Below, in pieces: positions 1 through 63,981 of a stretch of 64,000 nucleotides of DNA. The notes beneath the pieces are model-generated. The model saw only the letters and a list, made by a program, of their open reading frames with translations. It did no database searches and was not told where the DNA came from. Every line of letters starts with the position of its first letter. Positions within the stretch are counted from its first letter, which is position 1. The DNA comes from a phage. Made by a program: the position numbers and the translations under genes. The DNA is taken from assembly GCA_019326865.1 (NCBI GenBank), contig GCA_019326865.1_4101.1, one strand, 5' to 3'.

Positions 1-818
1 GGATCATATTTTAGTCCATCAATTTCCCATTGATGATTACATCCATCACATTCAACTTCCATACTATGTGAAACTCCAATTTCAAGTACTTCATCCATTT
101 TTTCACGAATTAGTTTAAGAACTCCTTTTGATTGTTGACCAAGCCATTCATTAATGAATTCTTTTTCAACTACTTCATCGCCATCTGGAGTGATGATTTT
201 TGCAATAACTCCACCAATCATATCAAAGTTTAGTTGTGCCATATTTTCAAACACTTCAGAAAATATTTTTACTTTTTCCTCTTGTTCAATCTCAGCAGTT
301 TCTAGAAACTTAGTTTTCTGCTGCTCACTGAACATACGCTCAGCAAACGATGAATATTCTTTCCATGTTAGTGGTCTAAACTCTAAACGTAGTCCATTAT
401 CTAAATCAATAGATGGGATTTCTTCGAATGCTTGTGCAGTTTCAAGAAGATATGATAGATTACGTTCAAAACGACCTTCTTTTTCACATTCAGGACATAC
501 AGCGTTAATATCATATGTTTCTTCTTTAGATGCAACTTTAATAGCAATAAGAAGCATTTCAACGTCATTTACATATAACTCATCAGCATCAATAACATTA
601 GGAACACAGTTTTCAATGACACGTGATACTGCATCGCCGTTTAGTAACATATCTGGTGTATTGAGTGTCATTTCATCACGTGCACTACGTGCACAAACGC
701 CACATTTGACACCTTTTGGACCTAAAACTCCGTCTTTATAAGGAATAATTCCGTTACTAACTAATTTTGTACTGATCTCTTCAATTTTAGTGTACTTAGC
801 AAGTGGATTCATAGCCAT
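1..818 (-). CDS. hypothetical protein with paired-Cys (Zn-ribbon-like) motifs; 3' end lies outside the window
   Basis: ATG at 818-816 opens a minus-strand frame that stays open to the window edge; hand translation MAMNPLAKYTKIEEIS...CGVCARS...CPECEKEG...ECDGCNHQWEIDGLKYD. The listed + ORF 154..741 is its Ser-rich shadow. Confidence 0.5.
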   Translation of the reverse strand, partial: MAMNPLAKYTKIEEISTKLVSNGIIPYKDGVLGPKGVKCGVCARSARDEMTLNTPDMLLNGDAVSRVIENCVPNVIDADELYVNDVEMLLIAIKVASKEETYDINAVCPECEKEGRFERNLSYLLETAQAFEEIPSIDLDNGLRLEFRPLTWKEYSSFAERMFSEQQKTKFLETAEIEQEEKVKIFSEVFENMAQLNFDMIGGVIAKIITPDGDEVVEKEFINEWLGQQSKGVLKLIREKMDEVLEIGVSHSMEVECDGCNHQWEIDGLKYD

Positions 819-949
819 TTTTGTTAAATCTCCATGTAATAAATGTGTTTATAGTATTTATGAACTCAATAAAGATCAAATAAACCATTTTTTATAATCA
901 CAATAGTTTTATAAATATTTCTATAATACATTTATTAAAAGGGAATGTT

Positions 950-3154
950 ATGGCTGGAAATACAAGTGATTACCTACTCCAGCAGTTGGTTAATCAAACT
1001 AAAGATAACAACGATAGTTTGAGTGCTATACGTGAGTTATTGGCTGAAAATATAAAAAATGACAGAAAGAAGTCTGGTTCTAAAAGTGGAAAACGCAATA
1101 GTAGCAATTCATCAAGTACTGGAAATCGTGGTTCACGAACTAGTAACAAGAGTGCTGATGATAAAGAATTTGGTAAAATATTCAAATCATTATCATCGGA
1201 AGTATCAAATGTTGGTAAAACTATGATGAGCACTTCTGCAAATGTTAGTAATGTTGTCAATTCAATGGGAATGAGTGCATCTTCATTTGCTGGAACATTG
1301 TCAATGATTCCTGGTCCTGTTGGTGCAGCAGCAACTGCTTTTAAATTGGTCGCTGACGTTGGTATGGCAGTATATAATGTATTAAACGCACAACTTGAAG
1401 TTTATAATAGAATAAACAGTGCTGGTGTTGCCCTATCTGAAGGTTATGGTTCCATATTAAAAGGTGCAGGTGCATCAATGATGAGTGTTGATGCATTTGG
1501 TGAAGCATTACAAACACATAGTTCTGTTGTTGCACAATTGGATGGAGCATATGGTGATGGTGTTTCCACCTTTGGTAAATTATTGGGTACTGTACAACAG
1601 GCACAAAATCAATTAGGCTTATATGGGGTATCACAAAAAACACTAACTGATTTAACTGCACGTAATATTAAATTCCAAAAGCAATTTGGTGGAAGAGAAA
1701 TGTTACGTAGTATGGATCAAGCAAAAAGTACTGAACAGTTTGTCATGAGCATGACTAAGTTCAGTAAAAGTATGGGTGAGTCAGTTGATGCACTATTAAA
1801 TAAAACACAAAACTTAGATAAATCATTAGATACACGTTCAATGCAAATAGCATTACAGAACTATTCTGGGTTATCAGGTAAAGCAGCAGTCGAAACGTCA
1901 AAAGCATTTAACGAAGCTGCTGCGAGTATGGGTGATGTAGGTGCAGATTTCCTACGTTTAATTTCACATCGTTTAACCATAGGTGGTGTACCAGATGATT
2001 TATTGACTCCAGTACTTAATCAATTTGCTGACTTAGGTGAGAACTTGGTACGTAGTGGTGTTACTGATTCGCAAGAAATTCGTCGCCAGCAGATAGAATT
2101 TGTTAAAAAGAACAAAGAATTAATAAAGCAAGATTTATTACATCAGATTAATTTAGGAAACACTACTGCTGCAATCTTCAACCAACAACTGCTTGATATG
2201 GAAGCTGCGATAAACGATCCTAAGAGTCAACCAGCAGATAAACTAACACAATTCACTGATAGATTCAATAGATGGATTAGTAAAGAATTTTCTGCACCAT
2301 TTAATAAAATGTACGCAGATACTCAAAATTCTATTGCCGATTACCTTACTGATATTGCTGATCGAACCGATGGTGCATGGGAGTTTATTGGTCAGTTAGC
2401 ACTTGATGGGTTTGGTTTAGTTCCAATTGCGAAAGATGCAGTTGCGTATTTGGATAGGATTGGCGGTGAGTTTGAGCAGTGGTTAGACGGTTTAGGTACT
2501 GAAATTTTTGGTAGTGGATACAATAAAGTTTCAGAATCATTTAATAATTTCATGAATAACTTAATGGATTTACCTGGTAAATTATGGGATTCAGTCAAAG
2601 GTTGGTTTGGTGGTTCAAGTGATAAAGTAAAAGTTGATAATAACCCTGTTACTGATGGTGCTGAAAAAGTTAACAGCTACTTCGAAGAAAAAATGAATTC
2701 ATTTGGTGATTATATTTCTAATTCATTTGATCATTTTTTAAAATGGAATTCAAGCAGGAACTTCAAACAGCCCAAACCATTAGATGAATCTGTAGCAGAA
2801 AAACTTATTAGTAGTGGTCTTGAAAATAAACCAAGTGCAACTGCTAGAATAGAAAAATCTGAACATGTTGCACCTTATGTTACTATTACTCCTAAAACAT
2901 TCGATAAATCAGCATGGGGTCCGAATGAACCACCGATTCAAGCACAACCTGACGATTATGAGTCAATGAAAGCGATGATAAATAATGGTAGTAGTATGGC
3001 AAATGCTAATAATAATGCCACAATTTCAGAAGACATGAAAGAATTACTTAAAAAACTTGCTGATGTTAACGAGCAATCCCTATCTGCTGTACAACAGACA
3101 AATAACTATCTAAGAACTATCTCTGAAAACACTCAAGGTGAGAGAAACAGTTAA
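950..3154 (+). CDS. large hypothetical protein (734 aa), Ser/Asn/Gly-rich N-terminus, helical middle; possibly virion-associated
   Basis: Long ORF ending 12 nt before the portal gene; TATAAATA element at 910-917 upstream. No motif recognised. Confidence 0.55.
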   Translation: MAGNTSDYLLQQLVNQTKDNNDSLSAIRELLAENIKNDRKKSGSKSGKRNSSNSSSTGNRGSRTSNKSADDKEFGKIFKSLSSEVSNVGKTMMSTSANVSNVVNSMGMSASSFAGTLSMIPGPVGAAATAFKLVADVGMAVYNVLNAQLEVYNRINSAGVALSEGYGSILKGAGASMMSVDAFGEALQTHSSVVAQLDGAYGDGVSTFGKLLGTVQQAQNQLGLYGVSQKTLTDLTARNIKFQKQFGGREMLRSMDQAKSTEQFVMSMTKFSKSMGESVDALLNKTQNLDKSLDTRSMQIALQNYSGLSGKAAVETSKAFNEAAASMGDVGADFLRLISHRLTIGGVPDDLLTPVLNQFADLGENLVRSGVTDSQEIRRQQIEFVKKNKELIKQDLLHQINLGNTTAAIFNQQLLDMEAAINDPKSQPADKLTQFTDRFNRWISKEFSAPFNKMYADTQNSIADYLTDIADRTDGAWEFIGQLALDGFGLVPIAKDAVAYLDRIGGEFEQWLDGLGTEIFGSGYNKVSESFNNFMNNLMDLPGKLWDSVKGWFGGSSDKVKVDNNPVTDGAEKVNSYFEEKMNSFGDYISNSFDHFLKWNSSRNFKQPKPLDESVAEKLISSGLENKPSATARIEKSEHVAPYVTITPKTFDKSAWGPNEPPIQAQPDDYESMKAMINNGSSMANANNNATISEDMKELLKKLADVNEQSLSAVQQTNNYLRTISENTQGERNS

Positions 3155-3165
3155 GGACGAAAATA

Positions 3166-4905
3166 ATGAGTTGGAAACGACATATGACAGTGGGAAGGTC
3201 AAAGCTATCGACTATCCCAAATCAGTCCAATAATAGCAATAAATCAACAGGAACAAAAACCAATTTTGCTTCCTATCTTCCAGTTGTATATAATGGATTG
3301 GCAAACCGTACTGAACGTTATAGTCAGTATGAGCAAATGGACCAAGACCCTGAAATTAGAACTGCATTGAATATCATTGCTGACTTTTGTACTCAAAGTA
3401 CTGAAGATTATGGTTTACCATATAAAATAAAATACAAAGATGATATTGGAGATACTGAAGTAACAACGATTGAAGATCGTTTAGATGCATGGACTGAACA
3501 AAATGATTTTAAAACACGAATGTATGAGATTGTACGTGGTCTTTTGAAATATGGGGACCAGTTTTTTATCCGAGATCCAGAAACATTTGATTGGTATTGG
3601 GTGAGTCCAAAAAACGTCGAACAAGTATTTGTTAATGAAGCAACTGGGAAAACACCAGTAATTTATTACATACGTGATGTATCATTAAACTTAAAAGATA
3701 AAGTTTATAGTAATCTACAAGTTGGATTCGATAAAACCGCTTATCCTGGTGCTATTCCTACAACAATGGGTGGTGGTGGTTCTGTCGCTGCTGGCGGTGC
3801 ATCTGGATTCACTAGTCAAGGTAATACTGCTGACCCTTTCAGCACTAATGGTCAATTAGATGTTATTCCTGTTGGTGCAGAACACGTAATCCATTTGACG
3901 CTAAATACTGGACAAGATGGAGTATGGCCTTTTGGTACTAGTATACTTGAGGATGTATTCAAAGTTTATAAACAAAAAGAACTTCTAGAAGATAGTATCA
4001 TAATTTATCGTGTACAACGTGCTCCAGAACGTCGTGTTTTTAAAATCGATGTTGGTGATATGCAAGCACATCAGGCAATGGCTTATGTGGAAAGATTTAA
4101 AAACGAAATTCATCAGCGTAGAATACCTTCAAACAAAGGTGGAAGTACTTCTTTAATGGATGCAGCATATAATCCTTTAAGTATATTAGAAGATTACTTT
4201 TTCCCACAAACTTCTGAAGGTCGTGGTTCGGATGTTCAAACTTTACCAGGTGGTGATAACTTAGGGCAAATTGATGACTTACGCTACTTCAATAATAAAT
4301 TGATACGTGGTCTTCAAATACCAGCTTCCTATCTACCACAAGGTCCAGATGATGGTGGTGTTTCATTATTTGGTGATGGTGCAACACAAGCTATGGCAAG
4401 TGAATTACGATTCAATAATCAATGTATGCGTTATCAGCGTTTAGTTGCGAAACATTTTGATGCTGAATTCAAAAGATTTATGGTAAAAAATGGATATAAT
4501 ATTAGTACTTCATCATTTGAAGTCATTATGAATCCACCAATTAACTTAGCTTCTTATCGTAAAGCTGAATTGGATGCTAAATTAATTAATACATATCTAC
4601 CTCTTAATGATTTACCTTATATGGCTAAACAAACAATTCTTGAGAAAATGGGCTTTTCTAAAGCAGATATTGTTAAGAATGAACAAATGTGGTTACAAGA
4701 GAATCCACAAGATGGTTCTCAACCTTCTAGTGGTGAAGAAGATTCTGCTGGATTACAGTCTGTTGGTATTGATGCACCAAATGACCCAGGTATGGATCTT
4801 GGTATTGACGGTGATGGTAATTTAGAAAGTGCTGATTCCGAATATCAAGAACAACAAAGTGGAAGTGATGGTTTCAATCCTAATAATTTAGGCAATTCTT
4901 TTTAA
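3166..4905 (+). CDS. gp20: portal vertex protein (T4 gp20-like)
   Basis: Segment IIIYRVQRAPERRVFKIDVGDMQAHQAMAYVERFKN matches T4 gp20 [32 protein letters not shown]; size and position before the core/protease/scaffold/MCP genes. Confidence 0.85.
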   Translation: MSWKRHMTVGRSKLSTIPNQSNNSNKSTGTKTNFASYLPVVYNGLANRTERYSQYEQMDQDPEIRTALNIIADFCTQSTEDYGLPYKIKYKDDIGDTEVTTIEDRLDAWTEQNDFKTRMYEIVRGLLKYGDQFFIRDPETFDWYWVSPKNVEQVFVNEATGKTPVIYYIRDVSLNLKDKVYSNLQVGFDKTAYPGAIPTTMGGGGSVAAGGASGFTSQGNTADPFSTNGQLDVIPVGAEHVIHLTLNTGQDGVWPFGTSILEDVFKVYKQKELLEDSIIIYRVQRAPERRVFKIDVGDMQAHQAMAYVERFKNEIHQRRIPSNKGGSTSLMDAAYNPLSILEDYFFPQTSEGRGSDVQTLPGGDNLGQIDDLRYFNNKLIRGLQIPASYLPQGPDDGGVSLFGDGATQAMASELRFNNQCMRYQRLVAKHFDAEFKRFMVKNGYNISTSSFEVIMNPPINLASYRKAELDAKLINTYLPLNDLPYMAKQTILEKMGFSKADIVKNEQMWLQENPQDGSQPSSGEEDSAGLQSVGIDAPNDPGMDLGIDGDGNLESADSEYQEQQSGSDGFNPNNLGNSF

Positions 4906-4926
4906 ACATAAATAACAGTGTATAAG

Positions 4927-4952
4927 AATGAGGGTTTATATTAGCCCTCATT
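4927..4952 (+). terminator. hairpin after portal gene (aatgaggg / ccctcatt)
   Basis: 8-bp inverted repeat with 10-nt loop, followed by tttataat. Confidence 0.35.
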
Positions 4953-4978
4953 TATAATGCATATTTCAAGGAGATTGA

Positions 4979-5206
4979 ATGTTAAAGGACATCTTTGAAT
5001 CTAGCAGTGATTCAATGTACGACCCTGAAGATGATCAGAACGTATATAAAATTACTGACTCCAGAAAACCAAAACTAACATTACAAGTATTAAATAACTT
5101 AAGAAAGTATCGTGAATTTAAAGCACATGAGGAACAACGCCGCAAAAATGTGGTTGCTGTTGTTTATGCATCTACCCCAACAGGTGATGATTCTGGATTA
5201 ATGTAA
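4979..5206 (+). CDS. small hypothetical protein (possible prohead core protein, gp67 position)
   Basis: 75-aa ORF between portal and protease genes; call is positional only. Confidence 0.4.
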   Translation: MLKDIFESSSDSMYDPEDDQNVYKITDSRKPKLTLQVLNNLRKYREFKAHEEQRRKNVVAVVYASTPTGDDSGLM

Positions 5207-5250
5207 ATCAAAAATCGCACTTTTTTAAGCTTTTAAAAAAGGTGATTTTA

Positions 5251-5295
5251 TTCAGTACTAAATAATATCATACTTTATACGAATATAATATATCT
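5251..5295 (+). promoter_or_regulatory. conserved ~45-bp upstream block with TAAATAAT core (late-promoter-like)
   Basis: ttcagtactaaataatatcatactttatacgaatataatat is near-identical to the block at 7995-8040 upstream of the capsid gene. Confidence 0.45.
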
Positions 5296-5307
5296 ATGGA
5301 GGATATA

Positions 5308-6138
5308 ATGGCGAATTTAAAACTACTACAAGAAGCAATTGCGGCGTTTGCAAATGGTGAACAAGATATTGCTGATAAAAAAATGCGTAAGTATTTTGTT
5401 GAGCAAGCACAAGAAATTAACAAGAAGCTAGAAGAAAGCATGGAAGATGAAGACGAGGAAGTTGAAGTCGAAGATGAAGAACAGCTTGACGAAGATTTTG
5501 ATGTGCAACCAGATGCTGGTCTAAATGCTGAAATCGAATACACACTTGGTGAAGAAGATGAAAGTGCAGAAGATGAAGTTGAGTTTTCTGCTGATGCTGA
5601 TGGTGACGGTGAAGATGATGTTGATGTGGAAGTGAAGGCAGATGCTGATGTTCCTTCTGAAGATCAATGGGAATCAATTCAGGATGCTTTCCGTGGTTTA
5701 CAACAAATGTTTGATGAAATTGGTGATGGCGAAGTTGACCTAGATTCCGATGAAGAAGTTGAAGATAGTGAAGAAGAAGTCGGTGTTGACGGGGAAGACG
5801 AATTTGCTGACGTTGAATTCGGTGATGAAAAAATTGGTGAATCCTTCAAACTAGAAAAAGTTGCACCTGTCGACAAGAAAGAAAAAGCTGGTACTCATAC
5901 TAAATCCCCAGTAGCACCTGAAGCAAAATCCCCAGTAGCAGGAGCAGAACCAGTTAAATTTGCAAAGAAAACTGATCAAGCACCACTAGTAGACCTAGAT
6001 GATAAATCTGTTCTACCAAAAGATAACCTTGATCTTGGTAAAAATGCTCGCGGTGAAATGAAAGATGTAAAAGCACCAAAAACTACTGCATCAAATTCTA
6101 AATCACCACTAAGTAAAGCACAACCTAAAGTAAAATAA
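5308..6138 (+). CDS. highly acidic protein (possible prohead core or internal protein, gp68 position)
   Basis: RBS ggagga 5 nt upstream of ATG 5308; long D/E runs (EDEDEEVEVEDEEQ, DSDEEVEDSEEEV); lies between portal and protease. Confidence 0.5.
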   Translation: MANLKLLQEAIAAFANGEQDIADKKMRKYFVEQAQEINKKLEESMEDEDEEVEVEDEEQLDEDFDVQPDAGLNAEIEYTLGEEDESAEDEVEFSADADGDGEDDVDVEVKADADVPSEDQWESIQDAFRGLQQMFDEIGDGEVDLDSDEEVEDSEEEVGVDGEDEFADVEFGDEKIGESFKLEKVAPVDKKEKAGTHTKSPVAPEAKSPVAGAEPVKFAKKTDQAPLVDLDDKSVLPKDNLDLGKNARGEMKDVKAPKTTASNSKSPLSKAQPKVK

Positions 6139-6158
6139 ATAAATGAAAGGAGATCATT

Positions 6159-6782
6159 ATGAGTAGTATGATACGTGAATGGTCTTCATTCAATGATTCT
6201 AAAGTTGTTTTGGAACATCGTGATAATGGGTTTGGTGGGCGTGATTGTTACCTTCGTGGTATTGCAATTCAAGCAGACCAACGCAATTTGAACGAGAGAA
6301 TTTACCCTTTATCTGAAATTACAAGAGCAGTAAATAATATGAATCAGCGTTTAGCTAAAGGTGAAAGTATTCTTGTTGAATGTGACCATCCAGAAACACT
6401 GACTATTAATTTAGACCGAGTAGCAGCAATGATTACTAAGGTTTGGATGGAAGGTGCAAATGGTATGGCTGAAATCAAATTACTTGATACTGCACATGGT
6501 CAGAATATCCGTAAAATGCTAGAGGCTGGTGTAAAACTTGGTGTAAGTTCTCGCGGTTCCGGTAACGTAGATTATAATGGAATAGTTTCTGATTTTGAAA
6601 TTATCACTATTGATATTGTTGCTCAACCTAGTGCTCCAGAAGCATACCCAACAGCGGTATTTGAATCTCTGATGAGTAAGTACGGATCACCTTGTAATGG
6701 TTCTAAAAAAATCACTGAATCTAAAAAAGTAAATAATTTAGATTCTGAAATATACGATTTTTTCAAGAAATTAAAAGGTTAA
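6159..6782 (+). CDS. gp21: prohead core protease (T4 gp21-like)
   Basis: RIYPLSEI...LVECDHPETLTINLDRVAAMI...GVSSRGSG...IVAQPSAPEAY aligns with T4 gp21 LYPKRILE...GELNHPPRANVDP...GVSSRGLG...VWGPSAPDAW. Confidence 0.85.
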   Translation: MSSMIREWSSFNDSKVVLEHRDNGFGGRDCYLRGIAIQADQRNLNERIYPLSEITRAVNNMNQRLAKGESILVECDHPETLTINLDRVAAMITKVWMEGANGMAEIKLLDTAHGQNIRKMLEAGVKLGVSSRGSGNVDYNGIVSDFEIITIDIVAQPSAPEAYPTAVFESLMSKYGSPCNGSKKITESKKVNNLDSEIYDFFKKLKG

Positions 6783-6798
6783 CATTTTAAAAATATAA

Positions 6799-6824
6799 AT
6801 ATCTGTATGTTGAAGTACAGATAT
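6799..6824 (+). other. 9-bp-stem hairpin (atatctgta / tacagatat) in the protease-scaffold intergenic region
   Basis: Perfect inverted repeat immediately after a TATAAATA element at 6794-6801; no T-run follows. Confidence 0.4.
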
Positions 6825-6848
6825 TTCAGTACTTAAAGGAGAGAACGA

Positions 6849-7964
6849 ATGTCTAAATTAGAAAAGCTTCTAAAAGAATCATCTCTTTCTGATGAGGCAA
6901 AACAGCTAATTCAGGAAGCATGGAATGAAGAAAAGAACACACTAGCCGCAGAGATGCGTGAAGAAATGAAAGGCCGTTATCAGCAAGATTTGGCTGAACT
7001 AACCGAAGGATTGAACACTATGGTTACTCAAGTCATTGCTGAAGAAATGGGTGCTGTATATGAAGAGAAAAAACGTCTTGTTGAAGATCGTGTAACTCTA
7101 CGTAAAACACTAAGTAATTTCTCTGCGTTTTCAAATTCTGTTTTGGCTGAAGAAGTTAAACAAATGCGTAAAGAGCGTAAGCATCTACATGAATGCATGG
7201 GTAAATTCGTTAATTTTTCTAACGGTATCCTAGCAGAAGAACTAAAAGAATTCCACACAGAAAAACGTCAACTGGTTGAAGCTCGTGTAAAATTACTTGC
7301 AGAAGGTTCACGTCAAATTGCTGAAGCTCGTAATAACTTCATCAAACGTACATCTGAAAGTGCTGCTAAATATATTGCAGAGACAACACAGAAGAATCTA
7401 TATGCGTTAAAACAAGATCTAGTGGAAGCGAAACAAAATATGTTTGGTCGTAAAATCTTTGAAGCATTTGCTCAAGAATTTAATGTCAAACAATTCAATG
7501 AAAATTCATTGCTACGTTCACTAACTGAAACAATTAAATCTAAAGAAGATGAAATTGATCAAGTTAAGCAAGAACTACATGAAACTGTTAATGCGGTCAA
7601 AGCTGCTAAAACTAAACTACGTATTATGGAAGATGCACAAGCCCGTAATGCGATTATGTCTGAACTAGTAAAACCACTAACTGCACAGCAAAAACAAATT
7701 ATGGAATCCCTTCTAGCAACTTCACCTACTGAAAAGCTTAAAGAAGATTTCAGTAAGTACCATAAGTCAGTACTTAACGGTACTAAAGTAAATGAATCTG
7801 CTACCACTCGTCAAGCAGTTCAGTCTTCCGCTAAGAAAACTCTTGCAGAAGGTAAAGTGATCACTGGCAACCGTCAGGCTATTGTTGAAAGCGAAGAAAT
7901 GACCGCTGACGATATGGCATTCCTAAAAGAACTCGATGTTCTTTCGGGTATCAATAAAAAATAA
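6849..7964 (+). CDS. gp22: prohead scaffold protein (gp22-like, coiled-coil)
   Basis: K/E/L-rich helical 371-aa ORF directly between protease and major capsid genes; RBS aaaggagag. Confidence 0.6.
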   Translation: MSKLEKLLKESSLSDEAKQLIQEAWNEEKNTLAAEMREEMKGRYQQDLAELTEGLNTMVTQVIAEEMGAVYEEKKRLVEDRVTLRKTLSNFSAFSNSVLAEEVKQMRKERKHLHECMGKFVNFSNGILAEELKEFHTEKRQLVEARVKLLAEGSRQIAEARNNFIKRTSESAAKYIAETTQKNLYALKQDLVEAKQNMFGRKIFEAFAQEFNVKQFNENSLLRSLTETIKSKEDEIDQVKQELHETVNAVKAAKTKLRIMEDAQARNAIMSELVKPLTAQQKQIMESLLATSPTEKLKEDFSKYHKSVLNGTKVNESATTRQAVQSSAKKTLAEGKVITGNRQAIVESEEMTADDMAFLKELDVLSGINKK

Positions 7965-7994
7965 ACATTTTAAAGCATTTTAATAATCAATTTT

Positions 7995-8040
7995 TTCAGT
8001 TCTATAAATAATATCATACTGAAAAACGAATATAACATCT
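7995..8040 (+). promoter_or_regulatory. late-promoter-like element containing TATAAATA (8004-8011)
   Basis: ttcagttctataaataatatcatactgaaaaacgaatataacat; TATAAATA is the T4 late promoter consensus; ~45 nt upstream of the capsid gene. Confidence 0.5.
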
Positions 8041-8055
8041 TTAAGGAGATATATA

Positions 8056-9231
8056 ATGTCACAACTACTAAATGAATCCAAATGGGTAGCAGTAAAAGAG
8101 AAACTAGTTGAAGGTCTACAGGGTACTCGTAAGTCTGTAATGGAAACTGTTCTTGATAACCATCGTAAAGTTATGCTAACTGAATCCGCAACTTCTGGTG
8201 CAACTACCGCTGGTAATATCGCTACACTAAACAAAGTGATTCTACCAATTATGCGTCGTGTAATGCCAACTGTTATTGCTAACGAAATTATCGGTGTTCA
8301 GCCTATGACTGGTCCAGTCGGTCAAATTCACACCCTACGTGTACAATATGCTGATAATGCACCTGGTGTTATCGCTGGTGAAGAAATGCTTTCTCCATAC
8401 AAAATCGCTAAATCCTACTCTGGTGAACTAAATTCTGATAACAGCAATCCTCAAGCTGCTCCTACTAGCCAACTAGAAGGTACTATGGGTCGTCGCGTTA
8501 ACATCCGTATTCTACGTGAAACTGTTGAAGCGAAATCTCGTCGTCTATCTGCACGTTGGACTGTTGAATCTGCACAAGATGCTCAATCCCAACATGGTGT
8601 TGACGTTGAAGCAGAACTAATGGCTGCAATCGCTCAAGAAGTTACCGTAGAAATCGACCAAGAGCTACTAAGCCGTCTACGTGCACTACCAGGTGCTGCT
8701 GCTGTAACTTATGACCAATCTAAAGTTACTGGTGTTGCAACCTTCGTTGGTGATGAGCACGCTGCTCTAGCAACTCTAATTAACCGTCAAGCAAACGAAG
8801 TTGCTCGTCGTACTAAGCGTGGTGCTGCAAACTGGGCTGTTGTTTCCCCAACTGCACTAACCATTCTACAATCTGCTACTACTTCTAGCTTTGCACGTAC
8901 CACTGAAGGTACTTTCGAAGCACCAACTAACGTTAAGTTTGTAGGTACTCTAAACAGCACTATGCGTATTTTTGTTGATACTTATGCAAGTGATTCAGAA
9001 GATATTCTAATTGGTTATAAAGGTAATGCAGAAACTGATGCTGGTGTGTTTTATTGCCCATACATCCCACTAATGGCGTCCGGTACTGTAATGGACCCTA
9101 ACACTGGAGAACTCGTAACCACTTTCTTAACCAGATACGGGTACGTTCAGTTGACCGATAGCACCAGTTCACTAGGTAACGCTGCTGACTACTACAGCAA
9201 AATCGCTATCAAAAACGTTACTTTCATGTAA
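8056..9231 (+). CDS. gp23: major capsid protein (T4 gp23 family, compact 391 aa)
   Basis: IANEIIGVQPMTGPVGQIHTLRVQY vs T4 gp23 IAFDICGVQPMNSPTGQVFALRAVY; RILRETVEAKSRRLSA vs RIDKQVIEAKSRQLKA; ILIGYKGNAETDAGVFYCPYIPL vs FTVGYKGPNEMDAGIYYAPYVAL. Confidence 0.9.
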   Translation: MSQLLNESKWVAVKEKLVEGLQGTRKSVMETVLDNHRKVMLTESATSGATTAGNIATLNKVILPIMRRVMPTVIANEIIGVQPMTGPVGQIHTLRVQYADNAPGVIAGEEMLSPYKIAKSYSGELNSDNSNPQAAPTSQLEGTMGRRVNIRILRETVEAKSRRLSARWTVESAQDAQSQHGVDVEAELMAAIAQEVTVEIDQELLSRLRALPGAAAVTYDQSKVTGVATFVGDEHAALATLINRQANEVARRTKRGAANWAVVSPTALTILQSATTSSFARTTEGTFEAPTNVKFVGTLNSTMRIFVDTYASDSEDILIGYKGNAETDAGVFYCPYIPLMASGTVMDPNTGELVTTFLTRYGYVQLTDSTSSLGNAADYYSKIAIKNVTFM

Positions 9232-9274
9232 TATTGATTTTTGTAGAATTTATAGAATAAAAAACTTTTATACT

Positions 9275-9302
9275 AGGGACTCTTCGGAGTCCCTTTTTTT
9301 TG
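9275..9302 (+). terminator. rho-independent terminator after capsid gene
   Basis: agggactc-ttcg-gagtccct hairpin followed by a T-run. Confidence 0.75.
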
Positions 9303-9324
9303 GTTTTTATATAACTAAAAGATC

Positions 9325-9353
9325 TTGACAGCACTTAACAATTGTAGTATCAT
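9325..9353 (+). promoter_or_regulatory. sigma70-like promoter TTGACA-N17-TATCAT
   Basis: ttgaca at 9325-9330, tatcat at 9348-9353; sits upstream of the GTG start at 9388. Confidence 0.5.
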
Positions 9354-9387
9354 ACGTGTAAATAAAGAAAAGAACTCGGAGAAAATC

Positions 9388-10983
9388 GTGTTAGAAGAAA
9401 TCAAGAAGTTTTTATCAGAGAAAAATGTTCGTGGTGTTAAATCTGCTCTGCAAGCAAAATCTGTATACATTGAATTCCTGCGAGAGATGTTTGGTGATAT
9501 CGATCTTAATGAAATGATTTATATGGTATTGAATGATATTACTTCAGTGCCGAATGCTGAATGTGGTGACAAAGCTAAGTTTATAAGTATTACCGAAGGA
9601 TATTCTTACAAGTGCAATAAACCATTTCAAGGAAAAGGAAAATGCCTTATCTGTTGCTCCGCAGTTGCTAGGAAACGTAAAGAAACTTACAAAGAAAAAA
9701 CTGGTTATGATAACCCGGCACAGAATCCAGAAATTCAAAAGAAAATAGGGTATACCAATGAACAACGTTATGGCACTCGTATTGCTCAACAATCTGAACA
9801 AGTAAAGCAGAAATCAATAGAAACTAATATCAAAAAGTATGGCGTTGTTCATCCATCACAGTTGGAAAGTAATAAACAGCAACGTTTACAAACTGTACAA
9901 GAAAAGTATGGTATCAATAATGTATGGCAACTTAATAAAGGTCTTAGTGCACGTTATGAACAGTTTAAAACACGATTTGAACAGGATGGTAAATTTACTC
10001 TTTTAAGTGATGAATCCCATTATGATAATAGCAATGACGCAACTCATGCAATCATGCACTGGAAATGTAATGAATGTGGTAATGAGTTTGATAAAGTTGC
10101 TCTTTGCTTACGCTGCCCTAAGTGTGAACCATATTCATCCAGTACTGAAGAAGTTAATCTTTATAATTACATTACCTCTATCTATAGTGGTGTTGTTATT
10201 CAAAACAGCCGCAACATAATCAAAGGTAATGAAATTGATATTTTCATCCCAGAACTGAAACTTGGTATTGAGTTCAATGGTGAGTACTGGCATCGTGATG
10301 AAGTTCGTGGTAAAGACTATCATCAATCCAAATACTTCAAAATGAAGGAAGCAGGATACAAACTTATCACTATCTATAGTAATGAATGGTCAAATAAAAC
10401 TGAAATTGTTAAGAATCGTTTGAAAAGTTTGATTAGTGTGGATAGTAAAATCTATGCTCGTAAGTGTGAAGTTAGATTGGTTGTACATGAAGAATGTGAT
10501 AAATTTTTGTATGAACATCATATTCAAGGACCATGCCAATCATCAATCAAACTTGGACTTTACTATAATGATGATTTGGTTGCTTTGATGACATTTGGTG
10601 CACCACGATTTAACAAGCAGTATGAATATGAATTACTGCGTTATTGTTCTAAAGGAACAGTTGTTGGGGGTGCATCGAAACTGTTAAAACATTTTGAACG
10701 TATGTATCTTCCTAAATCTCTTCTTTCATACGCCGATATGAACTGGAGTACTGGTAATTTGTATGAAAAAATTGGTTTTACTTTAGAAGAAGTAACTCAA
10801 CCTGGTTATTTTTACTATGATAGAAAAAACGAAGTTGTTTATTCTCGCCATCAATGCCAAAAACAAAAACTTATTAAAAAATATAATTTTGATAGTTCTA
10901 TGACAGAGAAGGAAATGACAAAAGAATTAGGATACTTTAGAATCTATGATTGTGGTAACTTAGTTTATAAAAAGATTTACTAA
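9388..10983 (+). CDS. multi-domain putative nuclease, paralog 1 of 3 (Cys clusters, YGV repeats, Vsr/DUF559-like PD-(D/E)xK core, conserved C-terminal domain)
   Basis: GTG start with RBS ggaga 5 nt upstream; N-terminus VLEEIKKFLSEKN aligns with paralog 3 MIIDELKKFLKSKN; core motif IDIFIPELKLGIEFNGEYWH; C-terminal domain shared with 30327..31931 and 44978..46729. Confidence 0.7.
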   Translation: MLEEIKKFLSEKNVRGVKSALQAKSVYIEFLREMFGDIDLNEMIYMVLNDITSVPNAECGDKAKFISITEGYSYKCNKPFQGKGKCLICCSAVARKRKETYKEKTGYDNPAQNPEIQKKIGYTNEQRYGTRIAQQSEQVKQKSIETNIKKYGVVHPSQLESNKQQRLQTVQEKYGINNVWQLNKGLSARYEQFKTRFEQDGKFTLLSDESHYDNSNDATHAIMHWKCNECGNEFDKVALCLRCPKCEPYSSSTEEVNLYNYITSIYSGVVIQNSRNIIKGNEIDIFIPELKLGIEFNGEYWHRDEVRGKDYHQSKYFKMKEAGYKLITIYSNEWSNKTEIVKNRLKSLISVDSKIYARKCEVRLVVHEECDKFLYEHHIQGPCQSSIKLGLYYNDDLVALMTFGAPRFNKQYEYELLRYCSKGTVVGGASKLLKHFERMYLPKSLLSYADMNWSTGNLYEKIGFTLEEVTQPGYFYYDRKNEVVYSRHQCQKQKLIKKYNFDSSMTEKEMTKELGYFRIYDCGNLVYKKIY

Positions 10984-11000
10984 AATACGGGAGAATACGG

Positions 11001-11351
11001 ATGTTAACTGTATACAAATTTAACAAAGAAGAGTACTTAAAGAGTCAGTACTCAAATATAGAAATAAATGTTCCTTATGGTACGTTAGTTGGATATGATG
11101 AAGCCACTGAAACATTGTATTATAATGATGATAGATTGGATTATAGTTTAGATTCTTTCATAGAAGATATACTTAATACACAAACTGAAGATATGTTGTA
11201 TGAAGAATACATCGATCATTATAGAGAACGTATGTCGGTGCTGCATTCTGATGCTCCTGTACTAAACATAGCACAAGAACCATCGGAATTTCAGCCACAT
11301 AATCCTTTTCAACGTTTAATTGATATTGGTTTAAAATTCACTATTAGTTGA
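11001..11351 (+). CDS. hypothetical protein
   Basis: 116-aa ORF with RBS ggagaa upstream; no motif recognised. Confidence 0.4.
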   Translation: MLTVYKFNKEEYLKSQYSNIEINVPYGTLVGYDEATETLYYNDDRLDYSLDSFIEDILNTQTEDMLYEEYIDHYRERMSVLHSDAPVLNIAQEPSEFQPHNPFQRLIDIGLKFTIS

Positions 11352-11390
11352 TAGATAAATATCTCCATATTAATGATGGAGATTGAATCT

Positions 11391-11699
11391 ATGTCACAGA
11401 TATGTTATGTTATAATAAACTCTGCATGGCCTGACTATGTTAAGATTGGTTTCACTTCTAAATCTGAAATGACAGAGCGTTTGAGAACGTATCAGACAGC
11501 TACCCCGTTTCGTGATTTTGAAGTTTATCATGAAGTTCACTTTGAAGACGCACGTTTAGCTGAAAAAGAGATACATAAAAGGCTTAAACAAATGAATGCA
11601 ACTAGACAACCAAACACGGAGTGGTTTAAAATGTCTAAAAAAATAGCAGCAAACATCATTGATTCTGTGTGGGATGATATGGATAACGACTTGCTATAG
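11391..11699 (+). CDS. T5orf172 / GIY-YIG-superfamily-like small protein
   Basis: ICYVIINSAWPDYVKIGFT...RLRTYQTATP...EIHKRLK...EWFK fits the T5orf172 pattern as I recall it; RBS ggaga 9 nt before ATG 11391. Confidence 0.5.
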   Translation: MSQICYVIINSAWPDYVKIGFTSKSEMTERLRTYQTATPFRDFEVYHEVHFEDARLAEKEIHKRLKQMNATRQPNTEWFKMSKKIAANIIDSVWDDMDNDLL

Positions 11700-11739
11700 G
11701 AATAAATATAGTATATATTAATCATAAAGGGATTTATAC

Positions 11740-13335
11740 ATGAGCATAAGTTTTAATAACCCATTGGATACAATGACCAGTACTGGTGCTAATGGTTCTT
11801 TAGAATTAATAGTGCTTGGTGGTTCACCAACTAATCCAAGACCTATTCGTTTTAATTCGTCATCAGTCATTATACCAGTAAAAACATTACCTACTGGTGA
11901 GCAAGGTGCAATGGTTTTTGATAGAAATGAATTAGTTTTGAAGTATCATAACGGTACAAGTTGGGTTGCAGTATATGATACTGATACTATTTTGGAACCA
12001 ATTAGAATTTCATTGGATGAAGTAAATCGAAAATTAAATTTAAAAGTAGAAACCGTATCATATAGTAGCAGTGCTGTTCCAAGTGCAAGTATAAGTGGGA
12101 CTAATTTAAATATTGTATTCCCTACTGTAGCTACTGGCGGTTCAGGACCAACTGGACTTTACACTTCACTAAAACCTGGTGCTATTACACAATACGCATT
12201 GACATCTGGACAAAACGTTGCTAGTATACGTGAACAAATGTCGGGTCAAACCAATGGACAAAATGGTCGCAATGGCTCACAAGGTTCTCCGTGGAAAACA
12301 TCTGATGGTTGGTGTTTTGCTGATGGGATGTGGTGGCAATGGGAAGGCGAAAATGGTACAATTACTAAACAAGTACCAAACCTTAACAGAAACGCGTATT
12401 TAAAAGGAATATCCACATCAGGTGTAACTCAAATTGATGGTGTTATTAGTAGTAGTGGAAACATTAGCGGAACTGTTTTAAGTGTAGCACAGTTGCCATC
12501 TCACTCATTCAGTTTTAGTGGGACTACTAGTGCTGCTGGTCGTCATGGTCATAGTCAAGCACTAAAAGGTAATGACCGTAGTGGTCTAAATGCAATAACG
12601 TCGAGTAGAGATAATGGTATTCCAACTGTAATCAGTAATATTAATGAAGCACCTGACCACGTACACTCATTTAGTGGAAACACAAACACACTTGGTGGAA
12701 ATCAGCCACATTACCATAGCATTAGTAACGTTGATGTGGAACACTTTAACGTTGCATACCTATATAATATTGCTGAATCTAACGTTGCATTGAGCGAAAA
12801 AGTTGCAAATAAACGTTATGTACTGAAAACTGGTGATACAATGACTGGCTCATTGACTATTGCAAATAGTGCATCCATACAGTCAAATGATACATCATTA
12901 GTTCTTTATTTCCGTAATGCAAGTGGGGGCGAACGTGCAGCGGTATATCATAACTCATCAAACAACACCTTGAGATTACGTTCTGGTGGTGCAGAAGTAG
13001 CTGTAAACTCTTCGGGTAACTTGTCTGCTCCATCTTTAACTGTTTCTAATAACTCAGCTACTGTTGGTGGCAAAAATATTGTTCGTTCGATTAACGGAAA
13101 TGCAGCAGATGGTAATGGTAATGTGAATATTAAAATTGAAACTGGTGCAATTACTGCTATGAAATTTGGTGGTAAACAACAACTTAGTGTTTCTGATAAC
13201 ATATATCGTTCAGGATGGGTAATCACTGGTTGGGCAAATGGTGATAAAAAAGAACTACGTGGTGCTGGTTATTGGTCTGCTCCATTGTATTATTTGATTG
13301 GTAGTTCTTGGTACATCATCCCAACCGATAATTAA
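11740..13335 (+). CDS. putative tail fiber protein
   Basis: Ser/Thr/Gly/Asn-rich 531-aa protein containing KTGDTMTGSLTI, a motif recurrent in phage tail fibers. Confidence 0.5.
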   Translation: MSISFNNPLDTMTSTGANGSLELIVLGGSPTNPRPIRFNSSSVIIPVKTLPTGEQGAMVFDRNELVLKYHNGTSWVAVYDTDTILEPIRISLDEVNRKLNLKVETVSYSSSAVPSASISGTNLNIVFPTVATGGSGPTGLYTSLKPGAITQYALTSGQNVASIREQMSGQTNGQNGRNGSQGSPWKTSDGWCFADGMWWQWEGENGTITKQVPNLNRNAYLKGISTSGVTQIDGVISSSGNISGTVLSVAQLPSHSFSFSGTTSAAGRHGHSQALKGNDRSGLNAITSSRDNGIPTVISNINEAPDHVHSFSGNTNTLGGNQPHYHSISNVDVEHFNVAYLYNIAESNVALSEKVANKRYVLKTGDTMTGSLTIANSASIQSNDTSLVLYFRNASGGERAAVYHNSSNNTLRLRSGGAEVAVNSSGNLSAPSLTVSNNSATVGGKNIVRSINGNAADGNGNVNIKIETGAITAMKFGGKQQLSVSDNIYRSGWVITGWANGDKKELRGAGYWSAPLYYLIGSSWYIIPTDN

Positions 13336-20156: not shown

Positions 20157-20846
20157 TTAAACCAATGCTGGAAGGTATTGGAATAGTTTAATACCGAAAT
20201 CCCCTGCTGCATCAGCGGCCTGTGAACGTAGATAAACTTCAGTGACCCCATCTTTAGCAAGTAGTGGAACACCAGTTAGATCATCAATTAGTAGGCGACC
20301 TTCTTCATATTCAGTACTTGGAACGCCTTGTGGTGATTTTAGATCTTTGTTAAAAACACTAGCACGTTCAACTAGGAATGTGATAACAGACGCATCATCA
20401 ATACTAACTTTACCAGCACTAATAACACCATCTGGTGCGTTGGTGAAACCAGTAACTGGAAACACTTCACTACCATTTCCTGCAATGTTGGATGTTGCAA
20501 TAACAACTGCACGTTGTTGTACAACATCTACGATGCGTTTTACGTTAGTTTGTGCCGCATAGGATGCATTGTAATCTGATTCTAGTGATTCTAGAACGAA
20601 AGCAGAACCATCAACACGCTTGATACCTTTATCATTTAGGTATGCTAGAATTTCTTCTGGGATATCAGTGTTTAGAAAACGTTGTAAACCTACATAAGAG
20701 GAAACTGCTCCTGTTACAAGAACGTTCACGTCACCAAGTTTACTAATAGCAATAGATGCTAGGGCGTTAGTACCACAAAAGTAACCTAGAATACGCTCAA
20801 ATGAATACCCATTGATACGTTCAAAAGAAGTATTAGTATTTGACAT
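20157..20846 (-). CDS. hypothetical protein, tandem paralog A (possible virion structural protein)
   Basis: Shares QQRAVVIATSNIAG and RASVFNKDL with the neighbouring ORF 20862..21461. Confidence 0.55.
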   Translation of the reverse strand: MSNTNTSFERINGYSFERILGYFCGTNALASIAISKLGDVNVLVTGAVSSYVGLQRFLNTDIPEEILAYLNDKGIKRVDGSAFVLESLESDYNASYAAQTNVKRIVDVVQQRAVVIATSNIAGNGSEVFPVTGFTNAPDGVISAGKVSIDDASVITFLVERASVFNKDLKSPQGVPSTEYEEGRLLIDDLTGVPLLAKDGVTEVYLRSQAADAAGDFGIKLFQYLPALV

Positions 20847-20861
20847 AATATTACCTCTCTA

Positions 20862-21461
20862 TTATAGTTGAACTGGAAGAGCAGCACGTACTTTAATAGC
20901 TACAGCAGTAGATGCACCTGCATCACCAACACCATCAGTTCCTTGACTTACGAAAGTTTTAGTACGAAAAACTTTAGCTTGTGCAATAGATTTAGCTAGG
21001 TCAACAGTTGGATCAACTGGAGCAGGACATGCAGAACCTGGACGAACTTCTTGTTTATTAAATACGTCTTGACGTTCACAGATGAAAGTCAATGCAACAG
21101 AGTTAGCACCACCTTTAACATCAGTACCGCTAGTACCAAATGCAACTACGTTTGGGTTAGCATTTTTAAAATCTTCAGGAATAACAACTTCTGCATCAAG
21201 AGCAAGTAGTGAAGTCGTTACAAGAACAGCACGTTGCTGTAGTAGTTGAGTAACCATGAATAGGTTATATTGTGCATTGCTTAGTGCAGTTTGATATGCA
21301 TCAGCTTGAGCATCAGAACCATCGGACACAACTTTAGTAGTACCGATTTCAACATCAGTTGGTAGGTCGATTACGATGGTTACAAAACCGTTGTTGCCAC
21401 CCCACCATTCACGTGCAACACCAGACATACCATAGTTACGGTTAAAAGAATTAAGACTCAT
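20862..21461 (-). CDS. hypothetical protein, tandem paralog B (possible virion structural protein)
   Basis: QQRAVLVTTSLLAL and RQDVFNKQEV match paralog A; two TAAATAA-type elements lie upstream on the minus strand. Confidence 0.55.
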   Translation of the reverse strand: MSLNSFNRNYGMSGVAREWWGGNNGFVTIVIDLPTDVEIGTTKVVSDGSDAQADAYQTALSNAQYNLFMVTQLLQQRAVLVTTSLLALDAEVVIPEDFKNANPNVVAFGTSGTDVKGGANSVALTFICERQDVFNKQEVRPGSACPAPVDPTVDLAKSIAQAKVFRTKTFVSQGTDGVGDAGASTAVAIKVRAALPVQL

Positions 21462-21507
21462 GAAAATCTCCTTGTCGAATTTTGTGCAGGTTCATCCTGC
21501 TTAAAGT

Positions 21508-21584
21508 TATTTATCAAAAAATATTCCTAGCATTTAAATTTACTGGAATAATTAATGAATTTCTATGATATTATTTATCAAAAA
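21508..21584 (-). promoter_or_regulatory. two direct copies of tttttgataaataa (minus-strand sense), late-promoter-like
   Basis: Plus-strand ttatttatcaaaaa at 21508-21521 and 21571-21584; contains a TAAATAA core resembling T4 late TATAAATA. Confidence 0.4.
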
Positions 21585-27936
<6,352 letters not shown>

Positions 27937-30285: not shown

Positions 30286-30316
30286 TATGAATGGCCCGTA
30301 TGGGTCATTCTTTTTT
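30286..30316 (+). terminator. hairpin plus T-run overlapping the annotated 5' end of ORF 30291
   Basis: gaatggccc-gtat-gggtcattc followed by ttttttg; this is why the downstream start is placed at 30327. Confidence 0.55.
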
Positions 30317-30326
30317 GAGGATGTGT

Positions 30327-38568: not shown

Positions 38569-38625
38569 ATTAGTTCCATAAATATTAGTATAAATTTATA
38601 CCTATTATTTATGGAAGGAAAAACT

Positions 38626-59803: not shown

Positions 59804-59886
59804 CATACTAAATAATATACTTAAATATTTTTGATTTTTAATCATAAATAATCAAAAGTGTTTTGTATTATGGAGAAGAATATACA

Positions 59887-61803: not shown

Positions 61804-61818
61804 AATATAGATTAAAAA

Positions 61819-63981
<2,163 letters not shown>

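Follow-up and report, generated by a model that had tools for sequence, protein, structure and literature searches.

Probable T4-type late promoters in two similar blocks upstream of head genes in an Asteriusvirus jumbo coliphage

Results

The head-gene region and its closest relatives

The window, a stretch of 64,000 nucleotides (contig GCA_019326865.1_4101.1 of assembly GCA_019326865.1), is 99% identical to Escherichia phage UE-S1 of the genus Asteriusvirus, and its positions equal UE-S1 positions minus 312,294. The head-gene region (4900-9300) is 99.0% identical to UE-S1 and 94-95% identical to 121Q, PBECO4, phAPEC6 and G17; these five phages are Asteriusvirus jumbo myoviruses of ~350 kb with E. 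coli as host. The region contains the following genes.

3166-4905, plus strand: portal gene
4979-5206, plus strand: gene for a 75-aa product
5308-6138, plus strand: acidic virion structural protein gene (PHROG 15696, virion structural protein, E 1.9e-124)
6159-6782, plus strand: prohead protease gene
6849-7964, plus strand: scaffold gene
8056-9231, plus strand: major capsid protein gene; strong terminator at 9275-9294

The acidic structural protein gene likely starts at the ATG at 5308; the listed open reading frame begins at 5296. We refer to the intergenic regions before the acidic protein gene (5207-5307), before the capsid gene (7965-8055) and before the scaffold gene as IG-A, IG-B and IG-C, respectively.

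Two similar blocks upstream of the acidic protein and capsid genes

The first-pass annotation had described two near-identical blocks of about 45 bp preceding the acidic protein and major capsid genes. Both strings are present and both genes lie downstream as described, but the extents had to be corrected: the first string comprises 41 nt and ends at 5291, not 5295, and the second comprises 44 nt.

5251-5291, plus strand: block 1, in IG-A, before the acidic virion structural protein gene
5258-5264, plus strand: core CTAAATA at -12 to -6, predicted start A5270
5298-5310, plus strand: Shine-Dalgarno GGAGGA (5298-5303) and ATG (5308-5310) of the acidic structural protein gene, read from the sequence
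7995-8038, plus strand: block 2, in IG-B, before the major capsid gene
8003-8010, plus strand: core TATAAATA, with the 7-mer at 8004-8010 (-12 to -6), predicted start A8016
8043-8058, plus strand: Shine-Dalgarno AAGGAG (8043-8048) and ATG (8056-8058) of the major capsid gene

In a global alignment the blocks share 36 identities in 44 columns, with one 2-nt and one 1-nt gap, and the likeness extends past them across the entire IG-A and IG-B (local score 76). When the 100-nt upstream regions of the window were compared (2701 pairs; mean score 16.8, sd 3.3), this pair scored highest with 73, the runner-up reaching 35. Block 2 contains the exact 8-mer TATAAATA; block 1 does not, differing from it at two positions, and reads ACTAAATA, as does the orthologous site of RaK2. 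The Shine-Dalgarno region of the acidic protein gene, GGAGGATATAATG, is kept in most genera. The predicted 40-nt leader of the capsid gene is unstructured (-1.8 kcal/mol, z +0.7). A leader hairpin that would present the Shine-Dalgarno site (ATATC...GATAT) was considered and rejected: it is weak (-4.4 and -1.8 kcal/mol, z ~0), and it is invariant and thus uninformative.

Distribution of the core

The exact 8-mer TATAAATA is not enriched in the window (6 copies vs 10.8 expected); what is informative is the 7-mer combined with where it occurs. ATAAATA has only about half the expected number of copies, 21 vs 40.0 (sd 7.0). Fourteen of these 21 are in the sense orientation and fall within -90 to -9 of one of the 74 called gene starts, a zone that makes up 4.7% of strand space (binomial P 2.5e-14); only 2 of the 21 occur antisense in the same zone. 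The longer word TAAATAATAT is present in 6 copies vs 1.2 expected. The ATAAATA copies of the window have a strong bias in position and strand. In the adjacent 50 kb of UE-S1, 9 of 11 copies precede annotated genes, mostly baseplate or tail genes plus one lysozyme gene. A word that is rare within genes and concentrated just 5' of them is what a functional promoter word would show. Some copies are too near a start codon to serve that gene as a promoter (6135, 11355).

The other cores listed in the first-pass annotation are all present (910-917, 6794-6801, GATAAATAAT at 26508-26517, and 21508-21514 and 21572-21578 on the minus strand). We mapped about 17 candidate late-promoter sites in the window, including, besides the two blocks, those given here with an adjoining hairpin.

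855-917, divergent cores: 855-861 (minus strand) before a baseplate-hub-like gene and 911-917 (plus strand) before a 734-aa structural gene, following the annotation notes of G17
4908-4914, plus strand: core ATAAATA just past the portal stop codon, before the 75-aa gene, predicted start 4920
4926-4953: strong hairpin after the 4908 core (-21.8 kcal/mol, z -4.7)
6794-6801, plus strand: core TATAAATA before the scaffold gene, predicted start A6807
11702-11708, plus strand: core ATAAATA, 32 nt before the tail fibre gene 11740-13335
21508-21578, minus strand: two cores (21508-21514 and 21572-21578, the second being GATAAATAATATCATAG) before a minus-strand paralogue pair
26509-26515, plus strand: core ATAAATA, 30 nt before gene 26545-27849
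38578-38612: divergent, mutually palindromic cores, 38578-38584 (plus strand) and 38606-38612 (minus strand)
59808-59850, plus strand: CTAAATAATAT at 59808 and ATAAATA at 59844, before gene 59863-60453
61839-61845, plus strand: core ATAAATA in the loop of a terminator hairpin (-22.7 kcal/mol, z -6.4), 30 nt before gene 61875-62420

The genes downstream of cores that were scanned match PHROG families of virion structural proteins: the acidic protein gene 5308-6138, both members of the 20157-21461 paralogue pair (PHROG 9326), gene 26545-27849 (PHROG 13484) and gene 38611-39603. Other core-bearing genes are annotated as tail fibre or baseplate hub, to which UE-S1 adds the lysozyme gene. Replication genes instead carry GTGNTATAAT, found before those for RNase H (21619), SSB (28025), primase (39659) and others; it has 8 copies vs 1.3 expected, every one on the plus strand. 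Divergent intergenic regions must contain promoters. Two of them hold one core per late gene (855/911 and 38578/38606); in another, 21462-21618, the cores are directed towards the structural paralogues and GTGCTATAAT towards the RNase H gene.

Architecture of the candidate promoters and predicted start site

We built a logo from 25 candidate sites, located in the window and in UE-S1 and chosen on the motif ATAAATA/CTAAATA; it has information only in the 7-mer itself and in an A located 12 positions after its first base (19 of 25 sites). There is no informative column between -42 and -13 relative to the start in these 25 sites that could represent a -35 or other upstream element. The late promoters of T4 have TATAAATA at -13 to -6, and other T4-like phages show little conservation of the T at -13; phage Aeh1 uses the variant CTAAATA, beginning at -12 (PMC1524935). 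If the T4 numbering (PMC1524935) is applied to our sites, the conserved A falls exactly at +1. Our literature search found no transcript map and no data on 5' ends or timing for Asteriusvirus; for PA5oct, an RNA-seq study reports only sigma-70-like motifs.

The blocks also contain TATAAT (5284-5289) and TATAAC (8031-8036), and one could assume that they are ordinary promoters of the host sigma-70, or targets of a phage RpoD-like sigma factor. The first of these hexamers is perfect, and these phages do encode a fuller RpoD-like sigma factor in addition to the late-type sigma described below. However, a sigma-70 consensus scan of positions 700-12000 returned fewer hits than shuffled sequences and no plus-strand hexamer pair in IG-A or IG-B. 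The TATAAT in IG-A is not conserved, being TGTAAT in G17 and BF17 and absent in other genera, and transcripts started from it would have just a few nucleotides ahead of the Shine-Dalgarno site. Furthermore, the clear extended -10 class of the window, GTGNTATAAT, precedes replication genes and not the blocks. We therefore regard this explanation as highly improbable.

Conservation of the core in relatives

The orthologous intergenic regions were compared in 12 relatives: G17, BF17, JNE01, PHA46, EJP2, CBB, GAP32, fHe-Yen9-04, RaK2, XaC1, a Vibrio phage and PA5oct. Wherever the intergenic region exists, nATAAATA is invariant before the small, acidic protein, scaffold and capsid genes, while the flanks drift. 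At the capsid-gene promoter ATAAATAA is invariant in 15 distinct orthologous sequences. Downstream of the core, most enterobacterial genera and XaC1 continue with an A, three bases that vary and then CATAC, which is replaced by (C/T)ATAT in RaK2 and the Vibrio phage. In PA5oct and environmental relatives (64-69% capsid protein identity) the capsid gene is joined directly to the scaffold gene and there is no promoter between them. The CBB genome paper describes the ATAAATA motif upstream of structural genes, at 35 sites in CBB and in GAP32 as well; it reports a gp55-like sigma factor, with neither gp33 nor gp45 found (Buttimer et al. 2017, PMC5259590).

A gp55-like sigma factor gene and its possible partners

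The first-pass annotation had proposed a search for a gp55-like late sigma factor and a gp33-like co-activator elsewhere. The former is present in UE-S1. The 308-aa product of UES1_539 matches PHROG 12791, annotated as sigma factor for late transcription (E 1e-153), and, over residues 154-291, PHROG 234, annotated as late sigma transcription factor (E 1e-17). No hit was obtained with this protein in Pfam or among PDB sequences. The gene lies outside the window, ending about 4.8 kb upstream of the position that corresponds to the first base in the 99%-identical UE-S1 genome, and it adjoins genes for subunits of a recombination endonuclease, which we take to be gp47/46-like, in the gene order of T4. 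By analogy with T4, this gp55-like protein would be the factor that reads the (A/C)TAAATA motif.

The co-activator was not recovered: neither gp33 nor gp45 homologues are among the 30 proteins scanned against PHROGs. The genome of 121Q encodes a gp44-like clamp loader (PHROG 168, E 1e-78), which suggests that a clamp exists. A minimal sigma factor, a gp33 orthologue and a PCNA-type clamp have been described in group 2 jumbo phages (Iyer et al. 2021, PMC7824862). Given that the 30 scanned proteins include no gp33 or gp45 homologue and that the CBB authors found none either, the mechanism of activation may differ from that of T4.

Hairpins around the candidate promoters

Each of the three intergenic regions has a hairpin or inverted repeat.

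7992-8000, plus strand: IG-B inverted repeat, 5' arm TTTTTCAGT, which includes the TTCAGT flank pointed out in the first-pass annotation
8018-8026, plus strand: IG-B inverted repeat, 3' arm ACTGAAAAA, at +3 to +11 of the predicted late transcript
6799-6824, plus strand: IG-C RNA-type hairpin of 10 bp, arms 6799-6808 and 6815-6824, predicted start 6807
5211-5249, plus strand: IG-A AU-rich hairpin followed by TTTTATT (-13.8 kcal/mol, z -5.6), just 5' of block 1

The arms in IG-B form a perfect 9-bp inverted repeat whose 17-nt loop holds TATAAATAATATCAT; as RNA, the hairpin has -6.8 kcal/mol (z -3.6). Taken from one sequence alone, the repeat departs from chance only modestly (P 0.02), since the left-hand flank is rich in T and the right-hand one in A. 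Across 15 distinct orthologous sequences, aligned in a register anchored on the T-run and the C and thus independent of the right arm, 91.9% of cells pair, vs 44-67% in slid controls. Two pairs changed in a compensatory manner, A-U to U-A in 6 sequences and C-G to U-A in 2, giving the series CAGT/ACTG, CTGT/ACAG and TTGT/ACAA, which probably represents just two or three events. A G.U pair is found in RaK2, and the terminal pair alternates between U-A and U.G. A pattern scan of IMG/VR in which only the right arm was fixed returned a complementary left arm in every Rak2-like hit; among the unrelated hits, most of them A/T-rich DNA, a left arm occurred once, as a 7-nt match. RNAalifold gave no consensus for the whole of IG-B, where MAFFT had set the left arm out of register. 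Since the arms contain G.U pairs and the loop varies in length (15-22 nt), we favour a sense-strand RNA hairpin over a palindrome bound by a protein. The predicted start at 8016 falls between the arms, so this hairpin could fold only in RNA that reads through from the scaffold gene.

The IG-C hairpin begins inside TATAAATA: its 5' arm overlaps the last 3 nt of the 8-mer and the predicted start. A transcript from 6807 would therefore be without the 5' arm, and here too only read-through RNA would fold. Across genera 96% of cells are paired; four pairs have one-sided changes of the G.U type, and one pair is compensatory. The IG-A hairpin lies entirely upstream of its promoter and occurs in the same place in all genera with different stem sequences; it looks like a terminator or 3' stabiliser of the upstream portal/small-gene transcript. 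Around the IG-A promoter itself no consistent inverted repeat was found, the arms being 4-7 bp long and shifting in position. A search of positions 4800-8300 against Rfam gave only a chance-level match to the L20 leader (E 0.57). The Shine-Dalgarno sites (8043-8048, and AAGGAG at ~6837-6842 in IG-C) are outside the conserved helices, and the one of the capsid gene is touched only by a low-frequency, non-significant extended fold (z -1.3). The IG-B and IG-C hairpins may be intercistronic processing or stability elements.

These structures raise the possibility that AUAAAUA is not a promoter at all but an RNA signal, such as an endonuclease site in a loop, within a processing, stability or translational element of a polycistronic head transcript. 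The G.U pairs and compensatory changes in IG-B and IG-C are consistent with such a role, and so is the placement of the core in a loop (IG-B), a 5' arm (IG-C) and a terminator loop (61839). Nevertheless, the core is also found in divergent regions that no upstream transcript can reach (855/911, 21508/21572, 38578/38606), many core sites are without a hairpin, and the A at the +1 predicted from T4 and the gp55-like sigma fit a promoter. As hairpins and promoters can coexist, the RNA structure is an added layer more than an alternative, and we consider it very unlikely that it replaces the promoter function.

A joint reading would have the head-module promoters purposely placed within conserved RNA hairpins, namely in the loop of the one in IG-B, in the 5' arm of the one in IG-C and in the terminator loop at 61839. 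Read-through RNA would fold and be processed, stabilised or terminated, RNA started locally would escape, and this would set the ratio of scaffold to capsid protein. In its radical version, the hairpin extruded in replicating DNA would offer a single-stranded -10 element to a minimal gp55-like sigma and thereby replace activation by gp33 and gp45. We regard this reading as unlikely.

Why the two blocks are alike

A blastn search with 74 nt of IG-B finds the long block in exactly two places in nearly every Asteriusvirus genome, and in one place in other genera, among the matches listed. Within a single genome, IG-A and IG-B are 0.74-0.76 identical in Asteriusvirus vs 0.57-0.67 elsewhere. The IG-A of the window is 0.75 identical to its own IG-B and 0.65 identical to the orthologous IG-A of other genera, whereas the IG-A sequences of PHA46, EJP2, CBB and Yen904 are 0.74-0.88 identical to each other. 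The 10-mer ACGAATATAA is invariant in IG-B and absent from the IG-A of other genera; its copy in IG-A (5279) drifts within the genus, to ACGAATGTAA in G17 and ATGAATGTAA in BF17. The segment upstream of the capsid gene is 94.7-100% identical in 37 Asteriusvirus records among the matches listed, and IG-B is nearly invariant in the genus. The simplest account of this pattern is that about 45 bp of a capsid-type promoter and leader overwrote part of IG-A in the ancestor of Asteriusvirus. The overwrite would have come on top of an older layout common to both regions, consisting of a T-run, the core, CATAC, an A-rich leader and GGAG(G)ATATAATG.

The first-pass annotation had taken the conserved flanks as a sign of an extended recognition element. 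If this were the case, the whole block of about 45 bp would be a composite element: TTCAGT upstream of the core and ATCATACT and ACGAATATAA downstream of it would, like the core itself, be contacted by the late polymerase or by an accessory activator or repressor that serves only the most highly expressed head genes. This interpretation finds support in the match of the blocks over 36 of 44 columns, which makes them the top outlier pair, in the lysozyme-gene site of UE-S1, where TTCAGTACT directly precedes ATAAATAA, and in TTTTTC(A/T)G, which is kept upstream of the capsid core in every enterobacterial genus examined. However, the 25 sites have no class-wide conservation beyond the core and +1, and the long block exists as two copies in Asteriusvirus only. 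The distance from TTTTTC to the core varies between genera (4-7 nt), ACGAATATAA in IG-A changes within the genus and is missing from the orthologous IG-A elsewhere, and the flanks in IG-B covary as base pairs, which indicates a hairpin and not two independent contacts. A composite element is thus quite unlikely, and the flanks are better explained by the arms of the inverted repeat, by a leader and ribosome-binding region common to both blocks, and by partial copying from one site to the other. A long identity between two promoters need not imply a longer recognition site. The word TTCAGTWCT, which we had considered as a flank motif, occurs 125 times vs 47 expected; this is due to a genome-wide excess of AGTACT (82 vs 16), mostly from the AGT-ACT codon pair, and the word is not promoter-specific.

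At the other extreme, the long likeness might be neutral, left behind by a duplication or gene conversion that occurred locally and recently, without any function beyond that of other intergenic DNA. IG-A is indeed closer to its own IG-B than to its orthologues, and it varies within the genus. Yet both sites keep the core, the start region with CATAC and the Shine-Dalgarno region across most enterobacterial genera, and a neutral origin does not fit the near-invariance of IG-B within Asteriusvirus. The conversion component is, moreover, already part of our preferred explanation, and we give pure neutrality the lowest probability among the explanations considered.

Discussion

We think it probable that each block consists of a T4-type late promoter and the 5' leader of a gene for an abundant head protein, and that the additional likeness between the blocks is not recognised by the polymerase. 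The proposal of late promoters in the first-pass annotation is supported by the bias in position and strand, the structural genes downstream, the A at +1, the invariance of the core in 12 relatives, the gp55-like sigma and the published prediction for CBB and GAP32. The promoter would be a 7-bp element, (A/C)TAAATA at -12 to -6, without a -35 element, read by the core of the host RNA polymerase together with the gp55-like late sigma of the phage. Transcription would begin six bases downstream, at A5270 and A8016, and produce a leader of about 40 nt that is predicted to be A/U-rich and unstructured, with a strong Shine-Dalgarno site. The additional likeness may have three sources: the initial transcribed sequence CATAC, common to most enterobacterial genera; the inverted-repeat arms that bracket the capsid promoter (7992-8000/8018-8026); and the partial overwrite of the 5251 region by capsid-type sequence that we infer for the ancestor of Asteriusvirus.

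This provides a usable definition of a late promoter for the Asteriusvirus jumbo coliphages, several of which have been proposed for therapy: (A/C)TAAATA at -12 to -6 with a start A six bases downstream. Together with the separate GTGNTATAAT class, the definition could help to annotate operons and timing and to choose strong late promoters for engineering. The scaffold and capsid promoters embedded in hairpins are a small, testable lead on how the ratios of head proteins might be set.

Comparison with known late promoters

The late promoters of T4 (TATAAATA at -13 to -6, served by gp55, gp33 and the gp45 clamp) have the same kind of short -10-type element composed only of A and T, without a -35 element. 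The candidate sites share with them the same seven bases, ATAAATA, the same distance to a start A (predicted in our case), the placement before virion structural and lysis genes, and a gp55-family sigma gene located next to genes for recombination endonuclease subunits. In contrast to T4, conservation does not extend to the first T of the 8-mer, and position -12 can be a C, as in Aeh1. The sigma factor also differs: gp55 of T4 has about 185 aa, whereas the protein encoded here has 308 aa, with about 150 extra N-terminal residues (the PHROG 234 profile has 181 positions). Homologues of gp33 and gp45, both part of the T4 system, were not identified among the 30 proteins scanned.

A late promoter of this type has already been predicted for the relatives CBB and GAP32 (PMC5259590); our finding is real but ordinary. 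The phages belong to the same group (Rak2-like), the 7-mer and its placement before structural genes are the same, and the window's sites align with their orthologues before the capsid and structural genes in CBB and GAP32. The CBB work concerns a different genus (Mimasvirus), and the motif was reported with A/T-rich downstream sequence; the available part of that paper makes no mention of the start-site A, the inverted repeat at the capsid promoter or the two-copy block specific to Asteriusvirus (PMC5259590).

The hairpins resemble those of the T4 genes e, soc, 49 and I-TevI, in which the DNA specifying the 5' strand of an RNA hairpin contains a late promoter (McPheeters 1986; reviewed in PMC3014915). 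As in these genes, the 5' arms in IG-B and IG-C lie upstream of or across the predicted late start, such that read-through RNA could fold and locally started RNA could not. In hairpins of the gene e type, however, the 3' arm sequesters the Shine-Dalgarno site or the AUG. The 3' arms in IG-B and IG-C do not; they are located at +3 to +11 and +9 to +18, respectively, about 15-20 nt upstream of the Shine-Dalgarno site. Because they are clear of it, no occlusion is predicted, and we do not assign IG-B and IG-C to control of the T4 gene e type. A further difference is that the upstream transcripts in the head module would also be late, so no discrimination between early and late messages would be needed.

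Late-type cores at terminators and gene starts

One of the ATAAATA cores, the predicted T4-type late promoter 7-mer, lies inside a terminator, and two others face away from each other between genes:

61810-61874: intrinsic-terminator hairpin (CTCCAAGAT...ATCTTGGAG, then T7) whose loop holds ATAAATA at 61839
38578-38612: two divergent late-type cores forming a near-perfect palindrome (CCATAAATA...TATTTATGG)

The hairpin is strong in the predicted fold (-22.7 kcal/mol, z -6.4). Transcripts arriving from upstream would stop at this terminator, and those initiated in the loop would be missing the hairpin's 5' arm and would read on past it. The divergent pair has a minus-strand gene on one side and a virion structural gene on the other. 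The ORF list probably misplaces the start of an ORF here, at TTG 38560; the annotation of Escherichia phage UE-S1 implies a start near 38611 instead.

A second start codon is also in question. The gene for the acidic structural protein starts at ATG 5296 both in the ORF list and in the annotation of UE-S1. The in-frame ATG 5308 is favoured instead by a conserved GGAGGA (5298-5303) and by how the relatives G17, BF17 and CBB are annotated.

A second promoter-like class and an over-represented hexamer

Beside ATAAATA, the window contains a second promoter-like class, GTG(A/C)TATAAT, with eight copies against 1.3 expected:

21604, 27850, 27927, 34769, 39620, 52027, 54198, 58113: GTG(A/C)TATAAT sites, all on the plus strand

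Where the downstream genes can be named, they function in replication or recombination (RNase H, SSB, primase), and several copies carry a GGACA(A/G)AC-like box (repeat family D8) about 14-16 nt upstream. Most likely these sites serve as early or middle promoters, and the RpoD-like sigma of the phage may read them.

The palindrome AGTACT occurs 82 times in the whole window against an expectation of 16.0 (sd 3.8), a density of about one per 780 bp. Examples are:

5254-5259, 6828-6833, 7769-7774: copies of AGTACT

Of these copies, 51 are the in-frame codon pair AGT-ACT. Counted as a codon pair, AGT-ACT is likewise in excess, with 52 occurrences where the number of Ser-Thr dipeptides and the codon usage predict 17. 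Among the relatives compared, the hexamer excess is also found in those from enterobacterial genera that we examined and in XaC1, and it is absent from the Vibrio phage and PA5oct. This suggests selection for AGTACT, acting on either the DNA or the RNA.

Repeats in large ORFs

Three diverged copies of a 144-nt segment, 62-71% identical to one another, are each enclosed in a large ORF:

10554-10697: copy in ORF 9325-10983
31487-31630: copy in ORF 30291-31931
46246-46389: copy in ORF 44978-46729, a putative homing endonuclease according to the UE-S1 annotation

The large ORFs that carry these copies resemble a family of paralogous genes for mobile endonucleases. UE-S1 and G17 have different genes after the capsid gene.

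Late transcription in related and unrelated phages

Three features outside the window concern clamp loading and the late promoter layout:

L161 45868-49604: gp44-like clamp loader of phage 121Q (PHROG 168, E 1e-78), just past the window end
L096, L100, L105, L111, L115, L116, L120, L136, L141, L155, L158: unrelated environmental phage group from IMG/VR
L014 38540-38600, minus strand: two tandem ATAAATA cores before the UE-S1 lysozyme gene UES1_534

The 121Q clamp loader is flanked by proteins without an assigned function, including the 267-aa product of gene 64 (PHROG 15954), which could be a diverged sliding clamp and, as a candidate clamp, bears on whether a clamp activates late transcription. 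In the environmental group a terminator hairpin is followed by a T-run and then TATAAATAACTTCATACAGAAAAGAAGTT, with an ATG some 20 nt downstream. Because it is seen in this unrelated group, the layout of ATAAATAA, 3-4 bases and (C/T)ATAC may be more widespread among T4-like late promoters.

The second of the two lysozyme gene cores directly follows TTCAGTACT. In the predicted fold, sequence 5' of both cores pairs with the interval from the Shine-Dalgarno sequence to the AUG; the layout of this fold, whose energy is not significant (z +0.5), is reminiscent of T4 gene e.
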